Part shown: positions 7,101-43,716 of the stretch, in pieces
Numbering within the stretch: position 1 is the stretch's first letter
How the letters are laid out: each line of letters starts with the position of its first letter
Virus record (IMG/VR): IMGVR_UViG_3300011443_000001
Direction: 5' to 3' (one strand)
Origin: a virus
Length of the DNA: 64,000 bases
The notes under the pieces: model-generated
The model's database searches: none
The model's input: only the letters and a program-made list of their open reading frames with translations
What the model was told of the DNA's origin: nothing
Translations under genes and position numbers: made by a program

Positions 7101-9410
<2,310 letters not shown>

Positions 9411-28125: not shown

Positions 28126-28334
28126 TCTCGCAAATCATCAATGATGGTTGAGCCGGTGGCTTCATCCAAAATCGGGAAGCCGTCCTCATCCTGTAGCACG
28201 TCAATCGTCTCATTCACGATGATGCGCGGTGGAAGCGTCCGCCCAGGTAAAATTTTCGTCGCGCCCCGCGGAAAACATGGACGAGACAAATCACCTTCGT
28301 CATCACGATGAAGAGGGAACGTGCAATCTTTCAT
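28122..28334 (-). CDS. Small hypothetical virion-associated protein
   Basis: Coupled ORF; [12 protein letters not shown] motif common in phage fibre-associated proteins. Confidence 0.6.
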
Positions 28335-29494
28335 GCCAGTTGGATAAACATGATGCTCGAGCCATCCTGAAAAATGGTTTGCGGGGCCACCGCGCTATCC
28401 GAGGTCACATGAACATCGATAATCTCGTTCGGGCTGGACGTTGTGACAATCGCCCAGATATGGACGTAGTTACAATGGTCTGACCCTCCGGTATTCCACA
28501 TGATAACCTCAGGGTGCTCCCCGCCGGGAACGGGGGTCGCCGTCGTCTGGTTATTCAAATAGAAATCCCAGCTCAGGTTATTGCCGCTCCCCACATCGTT
28601 AAAACAGCGGAACCGCGCCAAAACAAAGTATGTCCCGACCGCCGGCAGCGTGACTTCCGGGTCGTCGATGCCGAAAGAAATTTTCTGGTCCACGTTCGTG
28701 ACCGCCATGTCCGTAGCACCGGTAATAGTAACCTGCCCGTTAGAATTGGTCGCCACCGAGCCCGCCGGACCCGTAGGACCCGTGGGACCGCCCGCGCCCG
28801 TCGGTCCGGTATTGCCTTGCGCGCCGGTAGGACCCTGGAGGCCCGGCGCACCCGTCGGACCGGTAATCGTAAGACCGCGGGGACCGCACGGCAGAGCAAT
28901 GGTCCCGGGAGTCGTCACCGCATTTGGCGACGGCACGGATTCGATGAGCTGCGCGAAGACAGAATTCGAAATTCGGCTCGTGACCATGTAGTAGCCCGAG
29001 CCCGGAATGAAAATCGTTTGGCCCGGCGTAATGGTGGGCGAGGGAACGATATTGAAATTAACGGTGCCGCCGGGCGACGGCTGCACGAACGCCGTCAGGA
29101 TAATAGTCCAGGCGTTCGCCCCGTTCTCGCCGGCGGCGCCGGCGGCGCCCGTCGGACCCTCCAGCCCATTGATACCGTCTCGGAACAGGCGGAGAAAATA
29201 ACACGCCAGCCCTTCCCCGTCCGCGCGCGGGTTGCCCGGCAGGCCGATGTCCAGGTTACAAGGCAGCAGCCACCGGACTTCTCCATCGATTTCCGTTTTG
29301 GTTACCGAACCAAAAAATGCGTCTACAAAGTTTTGGAGCGCGCTCGGGAGCGTCTCGCAGTCCGCCGTGTTGGGCGGGCATGCGCTGCACGGCGTGCGGC
29401 ACCCCGTCGCACAATTCGCCGGAAAAGTCTGGTTGCAATCTCCGCAATTGCCGCCCCCGCCGCAATCACAATTTCCGCAGTTATTGCAAGCCAT
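28331..29494 (-). CDS. Collagen-containing protein with Cys-rich N-terminus and BclA-like C-terminal beta domain
   Basis: 12 Cys in first 46 aa; GPT repeats; GTYFVLARF...SSIMFIQLA ending. Confidence 0.75.
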   Translation of the reverse strand: MACNNCGNCDCGGGGNCGDCNQTFPANCATGCRTPCSACPPNTADCETLPSALQNFVDAFFGSVTKTEIDGEVRWLLPCNLDIGLPGNPRADGEGLACYFLRLFRDGINGLEGPTGAAGAAGENGANAWTIILTAFVQPSPGGTVNFNIVPSPTITPGQTIFIPGSGYYMVTSRISNSVFAQLIESVPSPNAVTTPGTIALPCGPRGLTITGPTGAPGLQGPTGAQGNTGPTGAGGPTGPTGPAGSVATNSNGQVTITGATDMAVTNVDQKISFGIDDPEVTLPAVGTYFVLARFRCFNDVGSGNNLSWDFYLNNQTTATPVPGGEHPEVIMWNTGGSDHCNYVHIWAIVTTSSPNEIIDVHVTSDSAVAPQTIFQDGSSIMFIQLA

Positions 29495-29497
29495 AAT

Positions 29498-30049
29498 TTA
29501 ATGTTGCGTCCGGTCATCGATGCCGTCCTTGTTGGCGTCAACGAACCCTTGGAGTTTTCCGTGTCGGTGCGAGAACCAGTAGAGGACAATCGCCCCGACA
29601 CCCGCGCCGAGAATCAAAATCTCGTTCCCAACAATTAAACTCGGGAGCACAATCATCCCAAGACCAGCCGCCACGATGATGACACTGGTCGTCACGCTCC
29701 CGACAATCGCCCGCAGGTAGGGATGAAAGCTCGCGATGCCGAAAAGCAGCACAAAGATTCCCACCCACATCACGGGGCGGAGAGCGCCGAGCTTCGCGAC
29801 CATCTCGCGCGCCACGTCCTTCTGGGCCGCGCCGATTTTCGTGTGGACCTCTTCGACAACGATACCCGTTTTCGGGTCAACCGTGCGCTTGTAGTCCTGC
29901 ACCGTGTCCGTCTTCGGGTTTTCCGATTGGACCACGGAGACAGAGGAGCCGTCCGGCCGCACAAACGAAGACGCACCGGGCTTCAACGGCAGGATACCGC
30001 ACCCGGCCAACAGAACAAGAGCGAAAGCCACTGAAAGTAATTTCATCAT
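29498..30049 (-). CDS. Lipoprotein with C-terminal transmembrane helices (unimolecular-spanin-like topology)
   Basis: Lipobox LLAG-C; hydrophobic helices near C-terminus. Confidence 0.6.
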   Translation of the reverse strand: MMKLLSVAFALVLLAGCGILPLKPGASSFVRPDGSSVSVVQSENPKTDTVQDYKRTVDPKTGIVVEEVHTKIGAAQKDVAREMVAKLGALRPVMWVGIFVLLFGIASFHPYLRAIVGSVTTSVIIVAAGLGMIVLPSLIVGNEILILGAGVGAIVLYWFSHRHGKLQGFVDANKDGIDDRTQH

Positions 30050-30870
30050 GCGCCGATAAGCCCATGGCTGATTAAGTCGTCGAGCAACGCCTTAAGCCGT
30101 TGCGCCAACAACTCGGTCGTGACAGTCGCCGTATCGAACGACGTGCGAGTCGCGGTCCCCGTCGCCGCGGTCCACCCGGTTTTCCGAGACGAAACCACCT
30201 GCGTTCCGGACGACTTCACCGTCAGAACGTCCAAGGACGCGTAAGCACTATCGTCGCCCAGGCGGACCTGAACATCCGTCAGGGCACGCTTAAGAGCCGG
30301 GACGGTCACCAGCGCGTCTCCAAACGAAAGAAACGAGCCGGTAGCGGCCTTGTTTTGGAGTCGCAAAACCTCGGCGCCGAGCGCGGACCCGATAGGCGTA
30401 ACACGAAACTCCAGGTGCCCTCCCGCGTTGCCCCCAGACTGCGCTTGGTCCGTCTTTACAATCATGGTCACGTTGGACACGTAGGCCGCGCCATTCCAGG
30501 ATTGCCATGCGAGATTTCCGACTTCCGCACCAGACGCGACCGCCGCGTTTACATCGCCGGTCGCCCCGCGCTTGCGGAAAAATGAGGTATACGCAAAGTT
30601 AGTGGCCGAGTCAATCGTGTTCAGCAAAATGCCACCGGTGTTTGCCGTGACCATGCCGCCTACAACCAACGCGCCGGTCATCGTGTCGCCGGACTTCAAA
30701 ACATACCGAGCATCGGCCACCGCGGAAACATCGGCCTGTGTAAGCGTGATTGCACCGGTTCTCGCGTTAAAAGAAATCACGCCGGACGCAATCGCGCCGT
30801 CGAGCAGAAGACAAATCTTCTTTAACAGCGTGTTGTCCGTGTCGTTGATGCGTGGAGTCGTGTCGGGCAT
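30046..30870 (-). CDS. Putative fibre/spike protein
   Basis: SFNARTGAITLTQADV and YVLKSGDTMTGAL fibre motifs; QRLKALLDDLISHGLI end. Confidence 0.7.
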   Translation of the reverse strand: MPDTTPRINDTDNTLLKKICLLLDGAIASGVISFNARTGAITLTQADVSAVADARYVLKSGDTMTGALVVGGMVTANTGGILLNTIDSATNFAYTSFFRKRGATGDVNAAVASGAEVGNLAWQSWNGAAYVSNVTMIVKTDQAQSGGNAGGHLEFRVTPIGSALGAEVLRLQNKAATGSFLSFGDALVTVPALKRALTDVQVRLGDDSAYASLDVLTVKSSGTQVVSSRKTGWTAATGTATRTSFDTATVTTELLAQRLKALLDDLISHGLIGA

Positions 30871-31742: not shown

Positions 31743-33023
31743 TTAGGAGTCGCAGACTCCCAAAGAGGCAAACGCGTCGCTTCCAGAGAAGCTGGAGCTG
31801 TCCGGAACCACGCAGTCGGGCAGACCGAGGTCAGCCGTGCAGCGCCGGTAAAGGATGGGGATGACGTGCTGCGGGCGAATCGGCTGATACGCACGAGTAA
31901 TCTGATACTTGTGCCAACCGAAGTCACCGAACTGATTGCAGTCGTTGTCCACGATGTAGTGCCACTCGAGTTCGCCCATGTGCAACTGGGGCGCGAACTT
32001 GAAGGTCCCTTCGCCAACATACTTCTCAGGCACGAGCCGGTTGAAGGTGTTGTCGAACATGAGGAACCCGACTTCGTAATCCGCAGCCAACCACGCAGGG
32101 TTGATTTTGGCGAAGGCCGTGTTCTTCGTGAGGTTCGGGACATTCACGACGGGGTCAACCAGAATGAGGTTACCGTCGGCGTCAAAACCAGTCGCGCGGA
32201 GCGGACGTTGGTCCACACCGAAAGACAGACCGCGGTAAGCGGGCGCCTCTTCGAACTGATACGCACTGACGGCTTCCTTGCCGAGCATGTAGCTACCGCA
32301 AGTGAGCCCGATGAGAATTTCCTTCACGCCGATTTCATTCCGGAAACTCTCGATGATGTCGGAGCTGCCGATGAAGCGAGCGTGGGGCATGCCCTTACCA
32401 CCGCTGTCGAACATGGAGGCGAACAACGCTTCCTTGACGAAACGGGTGACGTAGTGCAGCGCCTTAAAGCTCAGCGGCCCGGTGGGCAGCAAAGGAGCGA
32501 ACTGGACGCCGAGGTCGGTTTCGGTTCCGCCGGTGAACAGAGAATCGAAATCATAGCCGGCGACAGCGTTGAACTTCGACGCACTGCGCAGATACAACTG
32601 CGCGCGAATATCCGAATTCACGTATTGCGTAATCAGCTTCCGCAGGGAATCCTCCGCAGACAGGTAGCTAGATTTGAAGGCCGCATAGCCTTTCTTCACG
32701 CACACGCGAGGACCGCGGCCACGTTTCGTTTCGAGACGAGCGGTGAAGTCAATCGCATCGGTGAGGTCCTGGATGCCGTTGGTTCCGCAAACTTCAGTGT
32801 CGCACTGAAAAGTGGGGAGGGCCAGCGAGTCGCCGGGGGCGGCTTGCATCTGGACGGGGAAACGGATTTCATCCGACACGCCGGACGGGAACACCCCGCC
32901 GCCGATTACGTTGATGAAAACCGAGTTTGCAGCCAAAGTCTTGGCTACGGTGCCCACCAATCGCGAAACGTCCTTCTGGGCAATTTCGCTTATGGTATCT
33001 GGGCTGTTACAATCTGCACTCAA
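31743..33023 (-). CDS. Major capsid protein (probable)
   Basis: 426 aa from TTG at 33023 preceded by aagga; own promoter-like motif upstream and hairpin downstream; position between scaffold and tail genes. Confidence 0.7.
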   Translation of the reverse strand: MSADCNSPDTISEIAQKDVSRLVGTVAKTLAANSVFINVIGGGVFPSGVSDEIRFPVQMQAAPGDSLALPTFQCDTEVCGTNGIQDLTDAIDFTARLETKRGRGPRVCVKKGYAAFKSSYLSAEDSLRKLITQYVNSDIRAQLYLRSASKFNAVAGYDFDSLFTGGTETDLGVQFAPLLPTGPLSFKALHYVTRFVKEALFASMFDSGGKGMPHARFIGSSDIIESFRNEIGVKEILIGLTCGSYMLGKEAVSAYQFEEAPAYRGLSFGVDQRPLRATGFDADGNLILVDPVVNVPNLTKNTAFAKINPAWLAADYEVGFLMFDNTFNRLVPEKYVGEGTFKFAPQLHMGELEWHYIVDNDCNQFGDFGWHKYQITRAYQPIRPQHVIPILYRRCTADLGLPDCVVPDSSSFSGSDAFASLGVCDS

Positions 33024-33186: not shown

Positions 33187-33212
33187 AGTGTGTGAAAATC
33201 CTAAATTGTCAA
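33187..33212 (-). promoter_or_regulatory. Short-spacer motif TTGACA-N14-CACACT-TCTT
   Basis: Upstream of capsid gene. Confidence 0.7.
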
Positions 33213-33692
33213 GGAAGCGTTTCTATGCCGGCGGACATACGCCGCGCCCGCCTCTAGCCGGCTGGGGTCTTCTTCAAAATGCCCAATTCCCGCATTACAA
33301 CAATGACATAACAACTCGCGAACTTTTCCCGTAACATGGTTATGGTCAACGTGTAACCTACGAAATTTTATGATGGAAGAAGCCGGGTCGGGAGGATGCC
33401 CGCAAATTGCACACTTTCCGCCCTGGGCCATCACCATCTGCTCATATTGTTCCACCGTAAGGCCATAGGTCTGCTTAAGGTGGCTCTTAAAATTAAGATG
33501 TTCCGTTCGACCAGGATTATTTTCCTTCCACATTTTGCTGGAACGCGCGACCTTTTCAGGGTTTTTAACTCTGTATTGACGGGAATATTCAGCCTGACAC
33601 TTCTTGCAATTATACCGGCGTCCGTCCGGCGCGAGTCCAAACGAATACTCCGACAAGGGCTTGCATTGCCCGCACTGAGAACAAGTCTTCAC
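33201..33692 (-). CDS. Endonuclease VII-type (HNH) homing endonuclease
   Basis: CSQC/CKKC Zn motifs; YGLTVEQYEQM..AQGGKCAIC...LHVDHNH.TGKVRELLCHCCNAGIG. Confidence 0.9.
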   Translation of the reverse strand: MKTCSQCGQCKPLSEYSFGLAPDGRRYNCKKCQAEYSRQYRVKNPEKVARSSKMWKENNPGRTEHLNFKSHLKQTYGLTVEQYEQMVMAQGGKCAICGHPPDPASSIIKFRRLHVDHNHVTGKVRELLCHCCNAGIGHFEEDPSRLEAGAAYVRRHRNASLTI

Positions 33693-33701
33693 ACCCTTCC
33701 C

Positions 33702-33727
33702 AGTGTGACCTATTTCGCCAATGTCAA
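33702..33727 (-). promoter_or_regulatory. Short-spacer motif TTGACA-N14-CACACT-GGGAA
   Basis: Upstream of endonuclease VII gene. Confidence 0.7.
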
Positions 33728-34648
33728 GCGCTGAAGAAATCCGTTGTAGGTCAACCGCAACCCCCCTTCAAAACTCACCTTCGGGGTCCACCCGAGCGCA
33801 CGGATGGCCGAATTGTCCAAAATCTTGCGCGGGACGCCCGTGGGCTTGCTCGAGTCAAAGTGCAGCCACCCTTCCCAGCCCACCACCTGAGCCACCGCTT
33901 CGGCAATCTCCTTGATGGTCCACTCGTCGCTGCTCCCCGCGTTAATCACCTCGCGCCCGTCATACGCCTGCATCAAAACCAGAAGCGCGCGGGCCAAATC
34001 ATCCGCGTAGAGTAGTTCCCGCTGCGCGGTTCCGTCGCCCCAGACATCAAATTCCCGCATCCCGAGCTGCTTGGCTTGGTGCAGCCGAGTCAAAAGCCCC
34101 GGGACAACGTGCGACCGAACGGAGTCGAACCGGTCGCCCGGCCCATAAAGGTTGCATGGCATCGCCGCAATGAAGTTACAGCCCTTCTCATCCCGAAGGT
34201 ATTGGCAAAGTCGAATGCCGGCCACCTTGGCGATGCCGTATGCCTCAGTCGTGGGCTCGAACGGCCCCGTCAGCAACGACTGGGGCTTGATGGGCTGGGC
34301 CGAGTCGCGCGGGTAGATGCAGGACGACCCGAGAAACAAAAGCTTCTTCACGCCATACTCCGCCGCGTTCAAAATCACGTTGCTCTGGATGGCGAGGTTC
34401 TTCGTGATGAAGTCCACGCGTTGTGTGTCATTCGCCAGGATTCCCCCGACGTGCGCCGCGCACAGGAAAACATACTCGAAGTGGTGGACCGAAAAAAACC
34501 ACTTCACGAACGTTGGGTCCGTCAGGTCGCCTTCCTGGTGCGTAACCGTCACGATGTTGGTGTAGCCTCGCGCTCGAAGTAGCCGCAGCACCGCGTCTCC
34601 CACGAGCCCGCGATGTCCGGCCACATAAATCCTGGAATCTTTGTTCAT
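33710..34648 (-). CDS. fcl: GDP-L-fucose synthase
   Basis: IYVAGHRGLVG, LCAAHVGGILAN, LGSSCIYP, YGIAK, MPCNLYGPGD, KPTGVPRK motifs. Confidence 0.95.
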   Translation of the reverse strand: MNKDSRIYVAGHRGLVGDAVLRLLRARGYTNIVTVTHQEGDLTDPTFVKWFFSVHHFEYVFLCAAHVGGILANDTQRVDFITKNLAIQSNVILNAAEYGVKKLLFLGSSCIYPRDSAQPIKPQSLLTGPFEPTTEAYGIAKVAGIRLCQYLRDEKGCNFIAAMPCNLYGPGDRFDSVRSHVVPGLLTRLHQAKQLGMREFDVWGDGTAQRELLYADDLARALLVLMQAYDGREVINAGSSDEWTIKEIAEAVAQVVGWEGWLHFDSSKPTGVPRKILDNSAIRALGWTPKVSFEGGLRLTYNGFLQRLTLAK

Positions 34649-35361
34649 ACGTGTCTGTTCGTGTATTGCTTGCGCGCGAATTGCAACTGCCGCCGGACGG
34701 GACCGCTCTTGACCGAGTGGACAAAAATCTTGCCGTGTCGCCAGACCATGTCCGTCATAACACGAAGGCCGTGCGGACTGCGGGTGCAGCAACTCATTCC
34801 ATCCCGAAAGTTGTTGTGCGGTATGTTGCCCTTCACCGCCACCGCCATGAAGAACCAGTCGATGAATGGAGTTTGGATTCCCTCTATTTCCACCGCGGGC
34901 GCCGCCGCAATCAACTTCTCCAGGATGTTCCGAGACAGAAAATACGGCGGCTGGAACGCGAGGCGGGGCAGCGGGTATTCCACCGGCCGCTTGTGACACA
35001 GGTCGGACACCTCGTTGCTCCACAGCACGTCTTCCTTATACAGATACTCCGGCAGCTTCGGGGACAAGCAAAAACTGTCCGAATCATTGCACAGGAAATG
35101 GGTGGCATTGAAGTCCAGCAAAAGCTTCCACTGCGCGAGCTGGCGACGCAGGCTATCCGCACCGATATACTGGCGCTTGCCGGCGAACCGGCAGATATGC
35201 GGACCCGCGCTTTCGATGCGAGAGTCGTCAGGCGTAACGATGACGATGGGCAGGTTGTGATGCTCGTAACATGGCATCAGCGCTTTGATTTGATGCGCGT
35301 CTCCCGCGTATCCATGAACAGACACGATGGTCTTCATGCTTTGTTGTATCTCGTCGGGCAT
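34645..35361 (-). CDS. Putative GT-A glycosyltransferase
   Basis: NDSDS (DxD) after beta strand; FQPPY; glycan-cluster context. Confidence 0.55.
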   Translation of the reverse strand: MPDEIQQSMKTIVSVHGYAGDAHQIKALMPCYEHHNLPIVIVTPDDSRIESAGPHICRFAGKRQYIGADSLRRQLAQWKLLLDFNATHFLCNDSDSFCLSPKLPEYLYKEDVLWSNEVSDLCHKRPVEYPLPRLAFQPPYFLSRNILEKLIAAAPAVEIEGIQTPFIDWFFMAVAVKGNIPHNNFRDGMSCCTRSPHGLRVMTDMVWRHGKIFVHSVKSGPVRRQLQFARKQYTNRHV

Positions 35362-35897
35362 GTCTGCGTCCTCCGCACCAGGGGGAACTCCCGCAGTGCT
35401 TTTTGAATCTTTGCCACGTCCACGTTTTGTGTCCGGGTCACAAATTGAATCACGCTGGTGACCGTTGAGAGCGGACGCTCCATCAGGTCTTCATACCAGA
35501 CGACTAACCGGTGCGGGATTGGGGCAAGCACCCATTTCTTAACGAAGCCGGCCCAAAAATCAACTCGGTTCTCCTGGGTGTCCGTCGTCTCCCCAACTAG
35601 GCGACGGTCCAGCTTGTCCCACGACTCGATTGACTCGAGCGGATTGCGCACCTGCACGATATAATTTCGCTCCGGCAAGACAGGAGTGACCAGCCCAAAG
35701 TCGTGGTTCTTCTGCCAATTTGTGGGCGTAGTCGGGCCTATGACCAGCGGGCAATCCCGATACAGTTCACAGTAATAGAAATTGTCGCCGAAGTAAGCGC
35801 TCAACACCTGAGTGAGCGCGTGGTGCCCAGACCGAGGATAAGTAATGCACTCGGTTGGAATCAGGGTTCTCGGAATGTTTTCGCAATCGGTGCTCAT
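35334..35897 (-). CDS. Sulfotransferase-family protein
   Basis: TYPRSGH (5'-PSB loop), VRNPLESIES (3'-PB), VVWYEDL. Confidence 0.8.
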   Translation of the reverse strand: MSTDCENIPRTLIPTECITYPRSGHHALTQVLSAYFGDNFYYCELYRDCPLVIGPTTPTNWQKNHDFGLVTPVLPERNYIVQVRNPLESIESWDKLDRRLVGETTDTQENRVDFWAGFVKKWVLAPIPHRLVVWYEDLMERPLSTVTSVIQFVTRTQNVDVAKIQKALREFPLVRRTQTCPTRYNKA

Positions 35898-36643
35898 AAC
35901 CAGCGTTTCCTAACCAAATCAAACACGTCGTCGTTTTTGCAGCCGTGCAGATAAACCACTCCCTTGTCGAGAAGGGAGTTGTATTGTTGCTCTGACACCT
36001 GGGGGCATCTCCACCAGGATTCCATCTGCGGAGCATTGGCCCATCCCATCCGCTTGAAATACGGCGCCAGAATCCAATCCCACCCCGCGCGCGGGGTGCA
36101 GCCCCCAAGCTTTCGGGTAAACCAATGCAAGAAAATCTTGTCCCCGGACATCAAACAATTGCCGTTGATGTGCTGGTGACCTGCGTCCTTTATGCCCGTC
36201 GGCAATAGCGGCCCAAACACTCGCACCGGCTTAACTTTGTTCGCCGCGTCCCAGGCTCGCGACAACTCTTCTATCCAGCCCTTACGAAGAGGCGCACCAT
36301 CCGCCTCCAAAAGCGCGACAGCCTTGTAAGGGGGGATTCGCTTGGCCTCGCTGTAAGAGTAAACGTAGTCGAGCGTGCCAAACGCGATGTCGTTGCATCC
36401 AGCGGGCCACCCGACGCCGCGACGGTTTCGGTTGATGTGAGTGTGAACCTTGAATTTTCGGGAGACATACTCAATCGTAGGAATGTCATGAGTGCAATCG
36501 AACCGCGCCGAGAAAAGCACGTCGGCAGACTCCGACATATGCGGCTCGAGGTCCGCGACGAGTCGGGCGAGCTTGCACATCTGCGCCTTATCGCGCTCCC
36601 AAAACACAAAAGCCAGCAGTAGCTTACTTGGTTGGTTCGCCAT
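35894..36643 (-). CDS. Putative GT-A glycosyltransferase
   Basis: ALLEADG (ExD), HINGN, HGCK; cluster context. Confidence 0.6.
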   Translation of the reverse strand: MANQPSKLLLAFVFWERDKAQMCKLARLVADLEPHMSESADVLFSARFDCTHDIPTIEYVSRKFKVHTHINRNRRGVGWPAGCNDIAFGTLDYVYSYSEAKRIPPYKAVALLEADGAPLRKGWIEELSRAWDAANKVKPVRVFGPLLPTGIKDAGHQHINGNCLMSGDKIFLHWFTRKLGGCTPRAGWDWILAPYFKRMGWANAPQMESWWRCPQVSEQQYNSLLDKGVVYLHGCKNDDVFDLVRKRWL

Positions 36644-37427
36644 AGCAATAGCTTCCAATGTGACCGCACAGGCAGCCCATGTCCACATGCGGATGGTGCC
36701 CGGCCTGGGTCGCGCGAATGCAGAACTGAACGTCCTCACCCATGCCCATGCTCGAGTGCCGCTTCGTAACTTGAAGTGCATACTTCAGCAACTTCACAGC
36801 CTTCGCCTCATCGTGTTCTTCATCAAGTGCCCGGATTGCGGCTCCCGCCGCTAGCCGCAGGTCGTGTTCCGAGCTAGTGAACCACTGACCACCTTTTCCG
36901 TCCGACCCGCGCGCGAGGTGCGGAAATTTCTTTTCGATGTCGAGGAAAACATTTCGATGAATCAACATGCACCCGGTCCCAACCCACCGGGTAGGCTTGC
37001 AGGTGTCGTGCGGACCGCGCTTGGCAAACTTCAACTCTTGCGGGTCCGAACCCTCTCCATACATTCCCTTGCCGTTGCGCCAACGTCCGAAATACAACCC
37101 ACCAACCAGAGTTTTATTATGGGAAAGAAGGCGGTCAACAGCATTAAGTCCGGCGAAATGCTCAGACAGGTTGAAACCAGTAAACGAGTTAAAAAGCGGC
37201 GCATTGCCGAAGGGGACGACCATGTCGTCGTCGATTGTCAAACACCACTCGATTCCCGTGCGCAAAAATTCATCGGCCAGCTTGTTTCGAGAATGCACGA
37301 TAAACGCATCCCCGAAGTCCAGCATCGCCGCCGTCTTGGTCCGGTCGATTAGCGACATGACGCTGAAAGCCATCCGCGGCTCCATCGTCTTGTAAGACGG
37401 CAAACAAATGCAGACCTGTCGGGTCAC
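36624..37427 (-). CDS. GT2-like glycosyltransferase
   Basis: IVHSRNKL, LTIDDDM, VGTGCMLIHR, MGEDVQFC motifs. Confidence 0.8.
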   Translation of the reverse strand: MTRQVCICLPSYKTMEPRMAFSVMSLIDRTKTAAMLDFGDAFIVHSRNKLADEFLRTGIEWCLTIDDDMVVPFGNAPLFNSFTGFNLSEHFAGLNAVDRLLSHNKTLVGGLYFGRWRNGKGMYGEGSDPQELKFAKRGPHDTCKPTRWVGTGCMLIHRNVFLDIEKKFPHLARGSDGKGGQWFTSSEHDLRLAAGAAIRALDEEHDEAKAVKLLKYALQVTKRHSSMGMGEDVQFCIRATQAGHHPHVDMGCLCGHIGSYCYGEPTK

Positions 37428-39073: not shown

Positions 39074-41233
39074 TTATAAGGTCGGTGCGGGTGCCGTTTC
39101 GGGCGGAGGGGCTTCTGGCGCCGGCGGCGCACCTTCAATCGGTGCTCCGGTTTCGTCAAGCGGTCCGGGGGGCGCTCCCGCGTCGAGTTCCGCCTGTCGT
39201 TGTTCGGCCTTCGCTTGCTGCTCGGCTGCTTCCGCAAGTTTCGGCAACTGCGCGGCAAGTTTAGCAATGATATCGCTGAACGGCGCCATCTCATCTTTGG
39301 ACACGCCGACCTCAAGGCCAGCCTGCTCGTGCATCTTCGCGTGCTGCAAAATTGCCATCAACGTTTGCAGCGCATTTGGGTCCTGAACCGCCTGCTGCGC
39401 GGTAGACTCCAGTGCCGGCATCAAAACATTGAGATGGATGATGTGATTATCGCGAGGCGACACCGGAACATCCGCGCTCTGCGGAATAATAATCGAAGCC
39501 AGCTCCATCATCTGGGCACGCGTCTGCTCGGCCTCTTCCGTCGGGTCGTTGTCCGGCAACAGCACCGCATCCGCGAATTCCTCGTCCACGAGCGCAGTAA
39601 GTTTGCGCCGCTCAATTTCCTTCGCGTTGTAAAGGGGGTTCCCCCGGGCTTCGGTCGCGATGATAACGATTTGCTGCCGCTTAATCTCGGTGTAATCCTT
39701 CACCGTTTCCGCCGAGGGGGTGTTGGCAAGCTGGTCCAACTCTTCCCTCGTCATAATTTTCAGGAGACGCTCCTGCATCGCCTTCGCATCATCCTCGCTA
39801 GTGTTCGGGTCACACATGCGCTTCTGCATGGTCGTCACCGCCGCCGAAAACTGCGTCAGGAATCGCGAAATGATGTTGTCCTTGGTTTCTTCCTCACGCG
39901 ACGCGAGAAAATCCACCGCAGCTTTGGTCACACGCTCACCCTCCAGGGCCTTGGGGGTTGTGGCACCCGCCATCTGGTCCAGGAGGTTCGTCAAAAACTG
40001 GTCTAGCTGCACAAAGGGCTCCACCGCGGCGTCCAGCTTTCGCTCGAGCACGTTGTAGCCTTGCGCAATAAGAATCGCATTGCCGACGACGGACATTCGG
40101 AAGCGCTTGAGCACTTTTTCGTCCGCCTGGATGATAACTTTGCCGGAAAGATTGAGTCGGTCCACCACCTCGTTGCGCGAACGGTCGATAATGCCCGCAA
40201 TAGAGTAAAGCTCGCGACCAATTCCCTTCGAACCGTGAAGCGTGCCGTTGCCTTGCTGAAAACTGAAGAACGCGACGGCGTCCGCCATCGATTCATACTG
40301 GTCTTCGCTCGTGAACAGCTCCGTGAACGTCTTTTCTTCGAAAATGTAGTGAGAAACCTTGCCGTCAATCTCGGTGGCGAGCAAATGCCACACCACGACG
40401 ACCCGCGCGCCGCTTTCGTGCGACATCCCGAGGTTAGACTCACGAATCAGGTCCTCGTAAACGCGTTCCCAGGCTGAATACTGCGAGCGTCGGTCCTGCG
40501 GCATCGATGCGTTAATCATCATGACCGTATTTGCGAGATTCCAGCCGCGAGTTTTCGCCGACTCCTTATCCGAAATCAATTCGAACAGCTCATGAAGCAG
40601 AAAAACCTCCTTGAGCGCGACCACCTGGGCTTTTCCGGGAATCGGTTTCGTGCCCGTGGGCACGGCCATGAAGTCTTGACGGAAAAATTTCGGAAACCAA
40701 CTGAATTCATCGAGCCACGCGACCGACGCGAAGCCGAAAAGTGCGTTCTCCTGCGCCAAGTCGCCGAGAAAATCCCGCCAGCCGGCGCGGTTGCGCGCGA
40801 GCGCGGTCACTTCCCGCCGGAACGCCTCCGTTTTCACCGCGGCGCCCTCGATATCCTCCGGCAACGCCGAGTTGGTGATGTATTTCACGCCCTCGACGGC
40901 CTGAACAAACCGCGGAGCGACCTTCTCCACCAACATCGCGAGGACCTTGGTCGAAAAATTCGCCTTCCAACCCAGTCCCTCGTTCTCGAGCGAGTCGGTC
41001 CGGTGCGGTTTCTCCGAATTAACCTTCGCTTGGATGCGCGCGTTCTTGATGTTCCGCTCTCGCGACGCCGCCAGCAACACCAGGACGATGTTTTTGGCCT
41101 GATTCGCGTCCTTGATGGCCCGGTTCCCTGGCTTCAGGTTCTTGGACAGGGCGGGCGGAGAGACGGCCCCTTGGAAATCTTCCTGAGGTCCGCCGACCAT
41201 GATTGGTTCAGACCGTGATGGCGTAAGTGGCAT
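39074..41233 (-). CDS. Portal protein (probable)
   Basis: 719 aa helical protein downstream of TerL with Pro/Ala/Glu-rich tail as in podophage portals. Confidence 0.7.
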   Translation of the reverse strand: MPLTPSRSEPIMVGGPQEDFQGAVSPPALSKNLKPGNRAIKDANQAKNIVLVLLAASRERNIKNARIQAKVNSEKPHRTDSLENEGLGWKANFSTKVLAMLVEKVAPRFVQAVEGVKYITNSALPEDIEGAAVKTEAFRREVTALARNRAGWRDFLGDLAQENALFGFASVAWLDEFSWFPKFFRQDFMAVPTGTKPIPGKAQVVALKEVFLLHELFELISDKESAKTRGWNLANTVMMINASMPQDRRSQYSAWERVYEDLIRESNLGMSHESGARVVVVWHLLATEIDGKVSHYIFEEKTFTELFTSEDQYESMADAVAFFSFQQGNGTLHGSKGIGRELYSIAGIIDRSRNEVVDRLNLSGKVIIQADEKVLKRFRMSVVGNAILIAQGYNVLERKLDAAVEPFVQLDQFLTNLLDQMAGATTPKALEGERVTKAAVDFLASREEETKDNIISRFLTQFSAAVTTMQKRMCDPNTSEDDAKAMQERLLKIMTREELDQLANTPSAETVKDYTEIKRQQIVIIATEARGNPLYNAKEIERRKLTALVDEEFADAVLLPDNDPTEEAEQTRAQMMELASIIIPQSADVPVSPRDNHIIHLNVLMPALESTAQQAVQDPNALQTLMAILQHAKMHEQAGLEVGVSKDEMAPFSDIIAKLAAQLPKLAEAAEQQAKAEQRQAELDAGAPPGPLDETGAPIEGAPPAPEAPPPETAPAPTL

Positions 41234-41784: not shown

Positions 41785-43716
41785 TCACATATCGTTGTCG
41801 TCCAGCGCCGTGTCCAGGTCCTCGAATCGGTTCGTCCGGTCGCAGCCGATGTCGCGCGCCTGGGGGTCCCACTCCGACTGGTGCTCGATGGGCTCCACGT
41901 CGGTGTCGCCGGCCATGCTGGGCGTAAACCCGAACCCGCGGCGCGCGGCCTGCAAAAGCAGGGTGAACGCGTCCGCGCTGTTCGGAGACTTGCCGGCGTG
42001 CCGGGACTTGTATTCTTTTTTGGACTCGACGTGTGACTTTTTTCCAATCATTCGGAACAGCCGGTCCGTAAGCTCCGGATACAGCTCGGACGTATCCAGT
42101 CCGAATGCGCAGAACATATACTTGAACTCGAGCCACCGTCGCAGAGCGAACCACAACTCGGAATTCACCCGGTCATAAAGTTCCTTGGCCGTGTCTTCAT
42201 CTTCGATAAACACCCGCGCGTCCGTCGCGCCCTCGTAAAAGTTCACGCCGACGACCGACGGCGACCACCGAGCCCGCAGGTAATCGTAAACTCCCTGACC
42301 GTTGCCCGTCCGGTCCAGCGCGAGGTGCTCGGGTCGAATCTTCATTGCGCGGCAGAGCCGCATGACTTCGTCTCCGACGACGAACGTGTCGCCATTCGGT
42401 ATGATGAAAATTTTCTCCGCGAGCAAAATGTGTTTCGGGGACTTATGCCCGTTGCGGTCCATAAAATAAATCGTTTCGCCCTCCGGATGCGCAAGGCTCG
42501 GACCCATACGCAGCCCGGTCGCCCGACCGAACAGCCCCTTGCACATCATGCACGCGTCACCGCCCTCGAGCGCAAGGTCCGCGCCCGCACACGGCTCCGG
42601 CACGTCATACCAAATCACCTCGCACTTCAGATTAACCGTTAGCCCTTGTGGAATCACCGCGAGCGCGACACCGATGGGCGGAAAACATCCGCGCACCATC
42701 GTCCAGTATCCCGGCGAGTCGAGCCCGCCAGCGTTGGCGATGATTTGCTGCATGCCCTCGTAGGTCTGCATGCCGGGATAAATCTCCCGCTTCTCTTTGA
42801 TGTTTTCGGACTGCATCGCGTCCAGGCGGACAATCCACCATCCGCGGACGGACATCCAATCGAAGTGCAGGTCAGGGTCGAAACTTCCCCAGCCGAACTT
42901 CGGCTCGCAGCGAACGCCTACGTCGTTGTTCCGGTCGTCCGGGTTGAACGCGCCGTAAACTTTCAGCCCGCCTCGATTCGAGGCGTTGGACAGCAAGTTG
43001 TCAATATCGTGCCACAGCCCTTTTGGCAGGTTGGAAATTTCGTCCACGAACACGAACAGCCGGCTCGTCTCGCCAAATTCCGGATGCGGAGTCTTGCGCC
43101 GAAAACGCGCGACACCTTGCAGCCGGCCCGCCGCCTTTTTCCCTTGCGGGATTACGACGCCCGCGATAGAGCCGCGCCGCTTGCGCAGGTCAAGACCGAT
43201 AAACAGCTTTCCGATTTCCCCCGGCAGCGGGATAGCCGAGTTTCGGTGCAGTTCGACGAGCTGCGAAAACAGGTTGGCTTCGAGATGGTCTTCACTCGGC
43301 CCTAGGACTCGGACCGACGTGTATTCGGGGTCGCGCAGCCACTCCAGAAAGAACCGAATCGCCATGCTGAAGGACTTCGACTGCTTGCCGGCGCCCATCA
43401 GCAATCCGAAGTCGTGTTCGTCAACGGCCGACCATACGCGCTTGGTGTTGTTCGGCCGCGGGTCAAACTGGTTCGGGGTCCACAACAACTGGGCGGCTTC
43501 TTCCATCGCGCCATGGTTCATGGCCCAGTGCAGGAGAATGTTTAGAAGCTCAAACGCCTTGGCCTTGGTTTCGACCGACTGCTTGGCCATCGCCGGCGTG
43601 GTCTGTGCTGCCCAGGCGCGAACGAGCCGCGCGGCGTCGTAAATCTCGCCGGCGTGAATGAGTTTCGCAGTCTCGCGAAGGAGTCCCTTAACGGGGTGTG
43701 ACTCTGGTAAAGCCAT
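41785..43716 (-). CDS. terL: Terminase large subunit
   Basis: Walker A-like MGAGKQSKS, Walker B FVFVDE, RNase H-like GADLALEGGD, ALDRTGNG, SPNSADA. Confidence 0.85.
   Translation of the reverse strand: MALPESHPVKGLLRETAKLIHAGEIYDAARLVRAWAAQTTPAMAKQSVETKAKAFELLNILLHWAMNHGAMEEAAQLLWTPNQFDPRPNNTKRVWSAVDEHDFGLLMGAGKQSKSFSMAIRFFLEWLRDPEYTSVRVLGPSEDHLEANLFSQLVELHRNSAIPLPGEIGKLFIGLDLRKRRGSIAGVVIPQGKKAAGRLQGVARFRRKTPHPEFGETSRLFVFVDEISNLPKGLWHDIDNLLSNASNRGGLKVYGAFNPDDRNNDVGVRCEPKFGWGSFDPDLHFDWMSVRGWWIVRLDAMQSENIKEKREIYPGMQTYEGMQQIIANAGGLDSPGYWTMVRGCFPPIGVALAVIPQGLTVNLKCEVIWYDVPEPCAGADLALEGGDACMMCKGLFGRATGLRMGPSLAHPEGETIYFMDRNGHKSPKHILLAEKIFIIPNGDTFVVGDEVMRLCRAMKIRPEHLALDRTGNGQGVYDYLRARWSPSVVGVNFYEGATDARVFIEDEDTAKELYDRVNSELWFALRRWLEFKYMFCAFGLDTSELYPELTDRLFRMIGKKSHVESKKEYKSRHAGKSPNSADAFTLLLQAARRGFGFTPSMAGDTDVEPIEHQSEWDPQARDIGCDRTNRFEDLDTALDDNDM

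Follow-up and report, generated by a model that had tools for sequence, protein, structure and literature searches.

A variable gene island for putative virion glycosylation in the head operon of an environmental phage lineage

What is glycosylated when a phage carries predicted glycosyltransferase genes among the genes for its own head? This question is raised by a 64,000-nucleotide stretch of viral DNA (IMG/VR record IMGVR_UViG_3300011443_000001, here called the window), in which an initial annotation had pointed to a five-gene fucose/sulfate glycosylation cluster at 33710-37427. We refer to the five genes, in the order of transcription, as gA, gB, gC, gD and Fcl. The reading that we favour, at a probability of roughly 0.55, is that a virion protein is glycosylated in the cytoplasm, with a glycan that contains fucose and is possibly sulfated.

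The five genes and their predicted products

Five minus-strand open reading frames (ORFs) fill 33710-37427 exactly (Table 1), and overlapping starts and stops link them from the scaffold-like gene through Fcl. The scaffold stop and the gA start have GTGA in common, gA and gB overlap by 20 nt, gB and gC meet at a common ATGA, gC and gD overlap by 28 nt, and gD and Fcl have one base in common. The start of gB was placed at the ATG used by relatives; its open frame extends up to 36781. Related viral contigs keep all five ORFs intact, at 65-84% amino-acid identity, which indicates that these are genuine genes and not chance ORFs. An identical 15-kb fragment of the window (G001) was not counted as an independent relative. 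Freshwater sediment, groundwater and soil yielded 24 listed runs, under as many study codes, in which the cluster DNA was nearly unchanged; no RNA run was among them, and three of the samples may be where the window's DNA originated. These results bear out the cluster as initially described, as well as its frame-coupling to the scaffold gene. The position that had been assigned to it, between scaffold and capsid genes, held as well, with the small correction that an Endonuclease VII-like gene separates Fcl from the capsid gene.

Both gA and gB were confidently modelled as glycosyltransferases of the GT-A fold. The AlphaFold model of gA (predicted local distance difference test, pLDDT, 87.5; predicted template-modelling score, pTM, 0.85) was closest in VIA structural comparison to STIV A197 (Z 18.1, root-mean-square deviation 2.4, 170 aligned), followed by residues 294-519 of LH3 (Z 17.8) and by mimivirus R699 and COLGALT1 (both Z 16.2); generic GT2 enzymes gave Z of about 13.5. 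Sequence identity between gA and these giant-virus and collagen glycosyltransferase fold neighbours was 8-16%. In the family alignment, D66 and D68 of the DxD motif were invariant, D67 was conserved in at least 90%, and G230-E231-D232 was invariant. The 779 homologues of gA found at E <= 0.001 included 120 listed proteins, none of which had a Pfam domain. gA itself matched no glycosyltransferase in Pfam, NCBIfam or PDB-profile searches, and Glycos_transf_2 (PF00535, GT2) was not matched above threshold. The label 'GT2-like' that gA had been given thus applies to the modelled fold and not to the Pfam GT2 family.

The gB model was of higher confidence (pLDDT 94.9, pTM 0.92), and a fold search of the PDB returned at least 500 matches at E <= 0.001, with a glycosyltransferase in every listed row. 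VIA comparison gave Z 16.1 for CHSY3-CHPF, 15.9 for B3GalT6, 15.1 for GlyE, LARGE1 and XylT1, and 13.5 for PBCV-1 A64R. The ranking was flat, with GT31, GT8 and GT14 enzymes at Z 16.1-15. D115 is invariant in the ExD position (E-A-D), as are H158 and N160, and the family comprises 459 representative clusters. Comparison of gA with gB by hhalign gave no relation.

Some gB-family representatives have composite architectures. In P0121 and P0202, gB-like domains occur in tandem, and in P0202 and P0204 they are fused to Nucleotid_trans or to a weak DUF6492 match. In P0237 and P0252, a gB-like domain lies behind an N-terminal domain that is weakly gA-like (small-database E about 5e-5), which may hint at cooperation between gA-like and gB-like domains.

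The third enzyme initially described as GT-A-like, gD, had no Pfam or PDB sequence match even by profile search. By hhalign it aligned with the gB family over 204 collinear columns (E 0.0058). The gB hidden Markov model (HMM) matched 109 of 116 gD proteins and the gD HMM matched 90 of 150 gB proteins, a signal that was weak, reciprocal and family-wide; only 6-8 gA proteins were matched, and gC was not. Between gD and gA, hhalign gave no relation. D93 and D95 are invariant within N-D-S-D-S, and the Atlas neighbours of gD include viral clusters in which Galactosyl_T is found on 49% and Fringe on 43% of the members. gD is therefore probably a GT-A glycosyltransferase and a distant paralogue of gB. 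Of the three GT-A-like enzymes, two fold confidently as such, and gD joins them on profile evidence only. For gA, gB and gD alike, Pfam, NCBIfam and PHROG gave nothing useful and PDB profile matches were at chance level, so that the cluster brings together three sizeable glycosyltransferase families without any Pfam model.

The sequence of Fcl clearly identifies it as a GDP-L-fucose synthase, as had been proposed. It matched NF047922 (GDPFucSynFcl) at E 1.9e-112 over model positions 2-304 of 308, and the top 18 matches in a PDB sequence search were all GDP-L-fucose synthases (E 7.9e-92 to 5.9e-38), ahead of UDP-glucose 4-epimerase and GDP-mannose 3,5-epimerase, the families that ranked after them at about 1e-24. 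The alignment showed conservation of GSSCIYPRD, of Tyr-x-x-x-Lys (YGIAKVAG; YAIAKIAG in 7LL6) and of an SHV motif, which, going by the E. coli enzyme, hold the catalytic Ser/Tyr/Lys triad and the Cys/His epimerisation pair. The NF047922 score (375.7 bits) is below the equivalog cut-off of 500, which marks Fcl as a divergent member and leaves a little room for a related product, another GDP-6-deoxyhexose. Missing functions were sought in five close relatives, of which four are 98-100% complete and two have direct terminal repeats. PF16363 matched only Fcl itself in these genomes, so that gmd is missing and the 4-keto intermediate must be made by the host, in line with the initial suggestion of a supply from the host or elsewhere.

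For gC, the initial call of a sulfotransferase is plausible on its motifs and on the gene content of sister phages, although both Pfam cut-offs were missed. gC scored 18 bits against Sulfotransfer_1 (E 0.0021; cut-off 22) and 17.1 bits against Sulfotransfer_3 (E 0.007; cut-off 27). Among the 17 members of its family, 10 matched Sulfotransfer_1 (best member E 0.00083), and sulfotransferases made up 20 of the 25 matches in a profile search of the PDB (best E 0.0027). Three motifs align in canonical order, PRSGHH on PKSGTT, RNPLESIESW on RNPKDCLVSY and YEDL on YEDI; these are the 5'-phosphosulfate loop, the 3'-phosphate motif and the C-terminal YEDL-type motif. P21, R22, G24, H25, H26, H65, R84, N85 and P86 are invariant in all 17 members, as are S92, W93, Y135, D137 and L138. 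By language-model comparison, 80 of the 100 nearest Atlas clusters were in sulfotransferase-bearing sets, one of them viral (top score 0.97).

A variant nested within our favoured reading is that the virion glycan is unsulfated, with gC either a degenerate or repurposed P-loop protein or an enzyme that sulfates a side chain or a small molecule. The sub-threshold scores of gC would fit this variant. So would its PRSGHH loop, because HH in place of the canonical TT leaves cofactor binding not assured, and the result of hhalign with a canonical sister-phage sulfotransferase, in which the 3'-phosphate motif alone was aligned (P 0.032). In addition, some close relatives with the arrangement gA-gB-gD-Fcl have no sulfotransferase. 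We nevertheless consider an unsulfated glycan unlikely. The motifs of gC are correctly ordered and invariant across its family, nearly all of its weak PDB and Pfam matches are sulfotransferases, its language-model neighbours are sulfotransferase clusters, and sister phages have a bona fide Sulfotransfer_3 gene in the slot.

In these sister phages the canonical gene (PF13469 E 2.3e-28) replaces gC and gD together, and within the window's subclade the space between gB and Fcl is occupied by gC and gD, by gD alone or by one bona fide Sulfotransfer_3 gene. Because that gene fills the slot of gC and gD, the comparison supports sulfation as a recurring function in the subclade. No adenosine 5'-phosphosulfate (APS) kinase was found in the five close relatives, and the sulfate donor 3'-phosphoadenosine 5'-phosphosulfate (PAPS) must therefore be supplied by the host.

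Variation of the island across the lineage

Scans of IMG/VR yielded 21 loci when based on the portal and 80 when based on the capsid. Scaffold and capsid genes are both present in 60 of these 80, with major capsid proteins (MCPs) 67-95% identical to that of the window. gA stood directly after the scaffold gene in all 60 loci and gB was present in 58. gD-family genes were found in 36 loci, often in two copies, and Fcl in 30; another short-chain dehydrogenase/reductase occurred in 10 and gC in 5, and three loci had a canonical Sulfotransfer_3 gene, with several unassigned families in the slot of some loci. Altogether 38 architectures were seen among the 60 loci, and the slot spanned 1.0-6.0 kb. 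Island proteins were 65-84% identical where the MCP was 92-95% identical. Genomes of the lineage are about 72-74 kb long with direct terminal repeats, and more distant gA homologues showed the same layout on contigs of 55-78 kb. No match was found among GenBank phages (50,697 records) by megablast of the region or by tblastn of gA and the MCP.

On this comparison of loci, the five-gene cluster represents a single allele of a hypervariable island whose anchors are gA and gB. A recent insertion was rejected, since gA and gB are fixed across the lineage. The word 'inserted', as first applied to the cluster, is consequently misleading: gA and gB are ancestral in the slot, and the variable cargo is the gC/gD/Fcl part only.

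Gmd is encoded in the island of 16 of the 60 loci, in more distant relatives, and together with Fcl in 14 of them; an example is L081:4078-5028 (PF16363 E 9e-133). The purpose of the island in these relatives thus includes GDP-fucose synthesis. At L088:3439-5523, Gmd is a 694-aa ORF in which the GDP_Man_Dehyd match falls into two stretches with a weak LAGLIDADG_3 match between them, a pattern suggestive of an intein in the phage protein. L081 also has two small paralogous ORFs (L081:5849-6349 and L081:6353-6814; 166 and 153 aa, 39% identical) without a Pfam match; such a pair, seen in some relatives, separates the last glycosyltransferase gene from the capsid gene.

The Endonuclease VII-like gene of the window is probably a mobile homing element outside the glycan machinery. 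Relatives have similar nucleases elsewhere (between gA and gB, or before the portal) or none, and an Endonuclease VII-like gene was in the slot of 17 of the 60 loci. Further Endonuclease VII-like, GIY-YIG and HNH-like nucleases were seen at L007:6974-7408, L016:13793-14284, L016:18410-18862 and L014:17514-17987, which suggests that mobile nucleases have a hotspot beside the highly conserved capsid gene. In L031 the island consists of gA alone, and the gene between gA and the capsid gene (L031:8007-9200, 397 aa) combines an Endonuclease VII-like N-terminus and a zinc finger with a Mom-family C-terminus (PF25680 E 1.7e-29).

Table 1. Genes of the island and of the surrounding head module in the window
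Feature	Coordinates	Strand	Remark
Large terminase	41785-43716	minus	head module
Portal	39074-41233	minus	head module
106-aa ORF	between portal and scaffold-like gene	minus	
Scaffold-like protein, 435 aa	37424-38731	minus	upstream anchor of island
gA, modelled GT-A fold glycosyltransferase, 267 aa	36624-37427	minus	first island gene
gB, modelled GT-A fold glycosyltransferase of GT8/GT31-like shape, 249 aa	35894-36643	minus	
gC, minimal PAPS-type sulfotransferase-like protein, 187 aa	35334-35897	minus	
gD, probable GT-A glycosyltransferase, distant gB paralogue, 238 aa	34645-35361	minus	
Fcl, GDP-L-fucose synthase (GDP-4-keto-6-deoxymannose 3,5-epimerase/4-reductase), 311 aa	33710-34645	minus	
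Endonuclease VII-like free-standing nuclease	33201-33692	minus	PF02945 E 2.1e-22; PHROG endonuclease VII families
Probable MCP, 426 aa	31743-33023	minus	downstream anchor of island

Possible targets of the glycan

The overlap of the reading frames leads us to infer late expression of the island genes alongside those for scaffold and capsid. Their products would be soluble cytoplasmic enzymes; none of the five has a membrane-like segment (in gA, no 19-residue Kyte-Doolittle mean exceeded 0.8). Fcl would convert host-made GDP-4-keto-6-deoxymannose into GDP-L-fucose, gA and gB would begin and lengthen an O-linked glycan on a virion protein, either ahead of assembly or while it proceeds, gD would add a further strain-specific sugar, and gC would sulfate the glycan with host PAPS. 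The outcome would be a fucose-containing, probably sulfated coat whose composition differs between close relatives, as in bacterial serotype loci. Our analysis established the enzyme folds and families, the synteny and the variability, and that genes for membrane functions, export, lysogeny and precursor supply are missing; it is the acceptor, the order of the sugars and the sulfation of the glycan that we infer beyond them. The description 'fucoidan-like', which had been used for the glycan, goes beyond the evidence.

Phage glycosyltransferases that alter host surface glycans are well known, as in gtrABC-type seroconversion, and the enzymes might add fucose and sulfate to a polymer of the host surface (O-antigen, capsule or exopolysaccharide), either to block superinfection or to keep progeny off the debris of lysed cells. 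Dependence on host Gmd and PAPS indicates that the phage draws on the host's envelope-sugar metabolism, and serotype-like variability would likewise suit an arms race at the surface of the cell. However, the five proteins have no membrane segment, and neither the GtrA flippase (PF04138), the Bac_transf priming phosphoglycosyl transferase (PF02397) nor a tyrosine integrase (PF00589) was found in the five close relatives, the window itself not having been scanned gene by gene. The absence of an integrase, together with the direct terminal repeats, suggests a virulent lifestyle. Frame-coupling to late head genes would leave little time for rebuilding the envelope before lysis, and gA lies right after the scaffold gene in every one of the 60 loci. 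We therefore regard remodelling of the host surface as quite improbable.

There is a slim chance that the target is of another kind: phage DNA, the scaffold or another internal protein, a cytoplasmic protein of the host, or a glycoconjugate that is free or secreted. The Mom-family (DNA-modification) domain protein in the slot of one relative (L031:8007-9200) and a short collagen-like Gly-Pro-Thr/Ser run in the scaffold-like protein could be cited for such a target. As for DNA, no ThyA-type (thymidylate-synthase-type) hydroxymethylase was found in the five close relatives, and the usual hydroxymethyl-base handle for DNA glycosylation is therefore missing. Known DNA glycosyltransferase genes sit among replication genes and not among head genes. 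More generally, a strain-variable glycan built by several enzymes is typical of exposed structures under diversifying selection.

If a virion protein is glycosylated, as we favour, two candidate acceptors are a Ser-rich tail of the MCP and Thr-rich Gly-Pro-Thr collagen-like fibres encoded downstream. The most likely start of the MCP is the TTG at 33023, not 33116; from there it has the 426 aa seen in relatives, and this start is conserved across the clade. It is the best-conserved protein of the module, with 92-95% identity among close relatives; it had no Pfam or PHROG match, and its Atlas neighbours bear Phage_capsid_3, Gp13-like or Phage_capsid_4 on 11-40% of members. Its C-terminal ~35 residues (31743-31850; ADLGLxxC...SSS[FY][ST]GxDxF...GVC) contain two Cys and a Ser run and are kept across the clade, in relatives with capsids 71-95% identical overall. 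This tail could be a glycosylation or a cross-linking site. Prediction of a complex between gA and the tail (residues 380-426) gave no answer (score 0.00) and speaks neither for nor against binding.

Collagen matches dominated by Gly-Pro-Thr were found in five late proteins. The longest run, in the product of 7101-9410 (769 aa, residues 124-453), has 110 uninterrupted Gly-X-Y triplets with 56 Gly-Pro-Thr, 81 Thr and no Lys; the four other proteins have shorter Gly-X-Y runs. A further example of a collagen-like protein is the product of 28331-29494. The collagen-like regions hold at most one Lys, and collagen glycosylation of the hydroxylysine type was rejected as a model for gA. Two further proteins vary strongly. 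The 274-aa product of 30046-30870, shortly downstream of the capsid gene, is 38-50% identical where capsids are 92-95% identical, and this hypervariable protein may be surface-exposed. The scaffold-like protein evolves fast: in relatives with portals at 83-89% identity it is 64-72% identical, and at an MCP identity of 72% its own is 36%. It has only weak Collagen and coiled-coil-type Pfam matches, and its name follows from its position after the portal and the 106-aa ORF.

Several points weigh against glycosylation of a virion protein with a sulfated, fucose-containing glycan. The case is built wholly on genomics, with both the phage and its host uncultured, and an argument from gene position amounts to guilt by association; the glycosyltransferase genes of the best-studied precedent lie outside the head operon. 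The identities of the capsid and scaffold proteins are not proven, given that neither has a Pfam family above the cut-off or a PHROG match. The closest fold likeness of gA is by itself no proof of activity, since the LH3 (294-519) and COLGALT1 (50-318) domains that it resembles are accessory rather than catalytic. The assignment of gD is built on weak profile signals. Fcl without Gmd is useful only if the host makes the 4-keto intermediate, and gC, below both Pfam cut-offs and with HH in its loop, could be inactive or act on a target other than a sugar.

Comparison with known systems

To our knowledge, phage particles were long held to be unglycosylated, the sole well-studied exception being a few mycobacteriophages in which the glycan shields the virion from antibodies. 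Our data allow a bolder proposal, which we put forward as doubtful: that the widespread sediment, groundwater and soil lineage described here places a strain-specific O-glycan, encoded by a serotype-like hypervariable island with two lineage-specific GT-A enzymes outside any Pfam family as its anchors, on its capsid or its collagen-like fibres, and that in the window's phage this glycan carries L-fucose and sulfate esters and would be the first sulfated glycan of a phage particle. If the island acts as its gene content suggests, virion glycosylation would be a conserved and fast-diversifying trait of a whole environmental phage lineage (at least 60 loci). A negatively charged coat of sulfated fucose would alter adhesion to minerals, biofilm matrix and host surfaces, and could mimic or mask host glycans.

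Two papers that cite Freeman et al. 2023 (PMC12363180 and PMC11256854) describe the virions of Che8, Corndog and Myrna as glycosylated by phage glycosyltransferases. The likeness to Che8 gp110, Corndog gp38 and Myrna would be that tailed phages use soluble glycosyltransferases of their own to glycosylate the capsid in the host cytoplasm, with a glycan shield as the result. The only structural link to them, in a fold search of BFVD, was a weak GT-A match to Mycobacterium phage Ardmore gp87 (E 1.1e-4, TM 0.42). The actinophage precedent had initially been described as operon-embedded, but it is not known to be so: according to PMC11256854, a relative of Che8 has its glycosyltransferase genes close to the genome's 3' end. 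The present lineage is unrelated to the mycobacteriophages, gA and the MCP having no tblastn match in the GenBank phage records. Its island is inside the head operon, is hypervariable, and includes a nucleotide-sugar enzyme and a sulfotransferase-like gene. Its glycosylation, unlike theirs, is predicted from genes.

Among temperate phages, gtrABC seroconversion relies on a membrane flippase and a bactoprenol-linked transferase, whereas GtrA, Bac_transf and integrase were not found in the five relatives. In the literature, whose coverage was incomplete, we found no phage with Fcl and a sulfotransferase in the head operon.

Giant viruses offer biochemical parallels. PBCV-1 encodes GMD (A118R) and GMER (A295L) for its capsid glycans, along with A64R and other glycosyltransferases (PMC9614988), and resembles the window's phage in having virus-encoded cytoplasmic GT-A enzymes and a GDP-L-fucose synthase; the fold of gB is similar to that of A64R (Z 13.5). 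It differs in being a eukaryotic giant virus with N-linked glycans, scattered genes and both GMD and GMER, whereas the window's phage has the GMER/Fcl step only and 14 more distant relatives have both. The Mimivirus family has clade-specific, variable glycan clusters that decorate virion fibrils, some of them with sulfate-metabolism genes, and it pairs collagen-like proteins with their glycosyltransferases (R699, L230; PMC9614988, PMC9546862). Sulfate-metabolism genes in some giant-virus glycan clusters are documented in PMC9614988. In contrast to the phage, in which the collagen-like regions are nearly without lysine, enzymes of the R699/L230 type act on hydroxylysine. The Tupanvirus cluster encodes sulfate activation (SAT/APS kinase), whereas the relatives of the window's phage are without APS kinase.

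The exosporium of Bacillus provides a bacterial parallel. BclA forms collagen-like surface filaments rich in Gly-Pro-Thr that are glycosylated on threonine with deoxyhexose-containing oligosaccharides, and its long Gly-Pro-Thr collagen-like repeats resemble those of the phage late proteins. BclA is a bacterial spore protein, whereas glycosylation of the phage fibres is a hypothesis only. Relative to known virion glycosylation in phages, the present system differs in its lineage, its fixed place between scaffold and capsid genes, its extreme variability and its sulfotransferase-like gene. Its main interest lies in the possible sulfation combined with a variability like that of serotypes.

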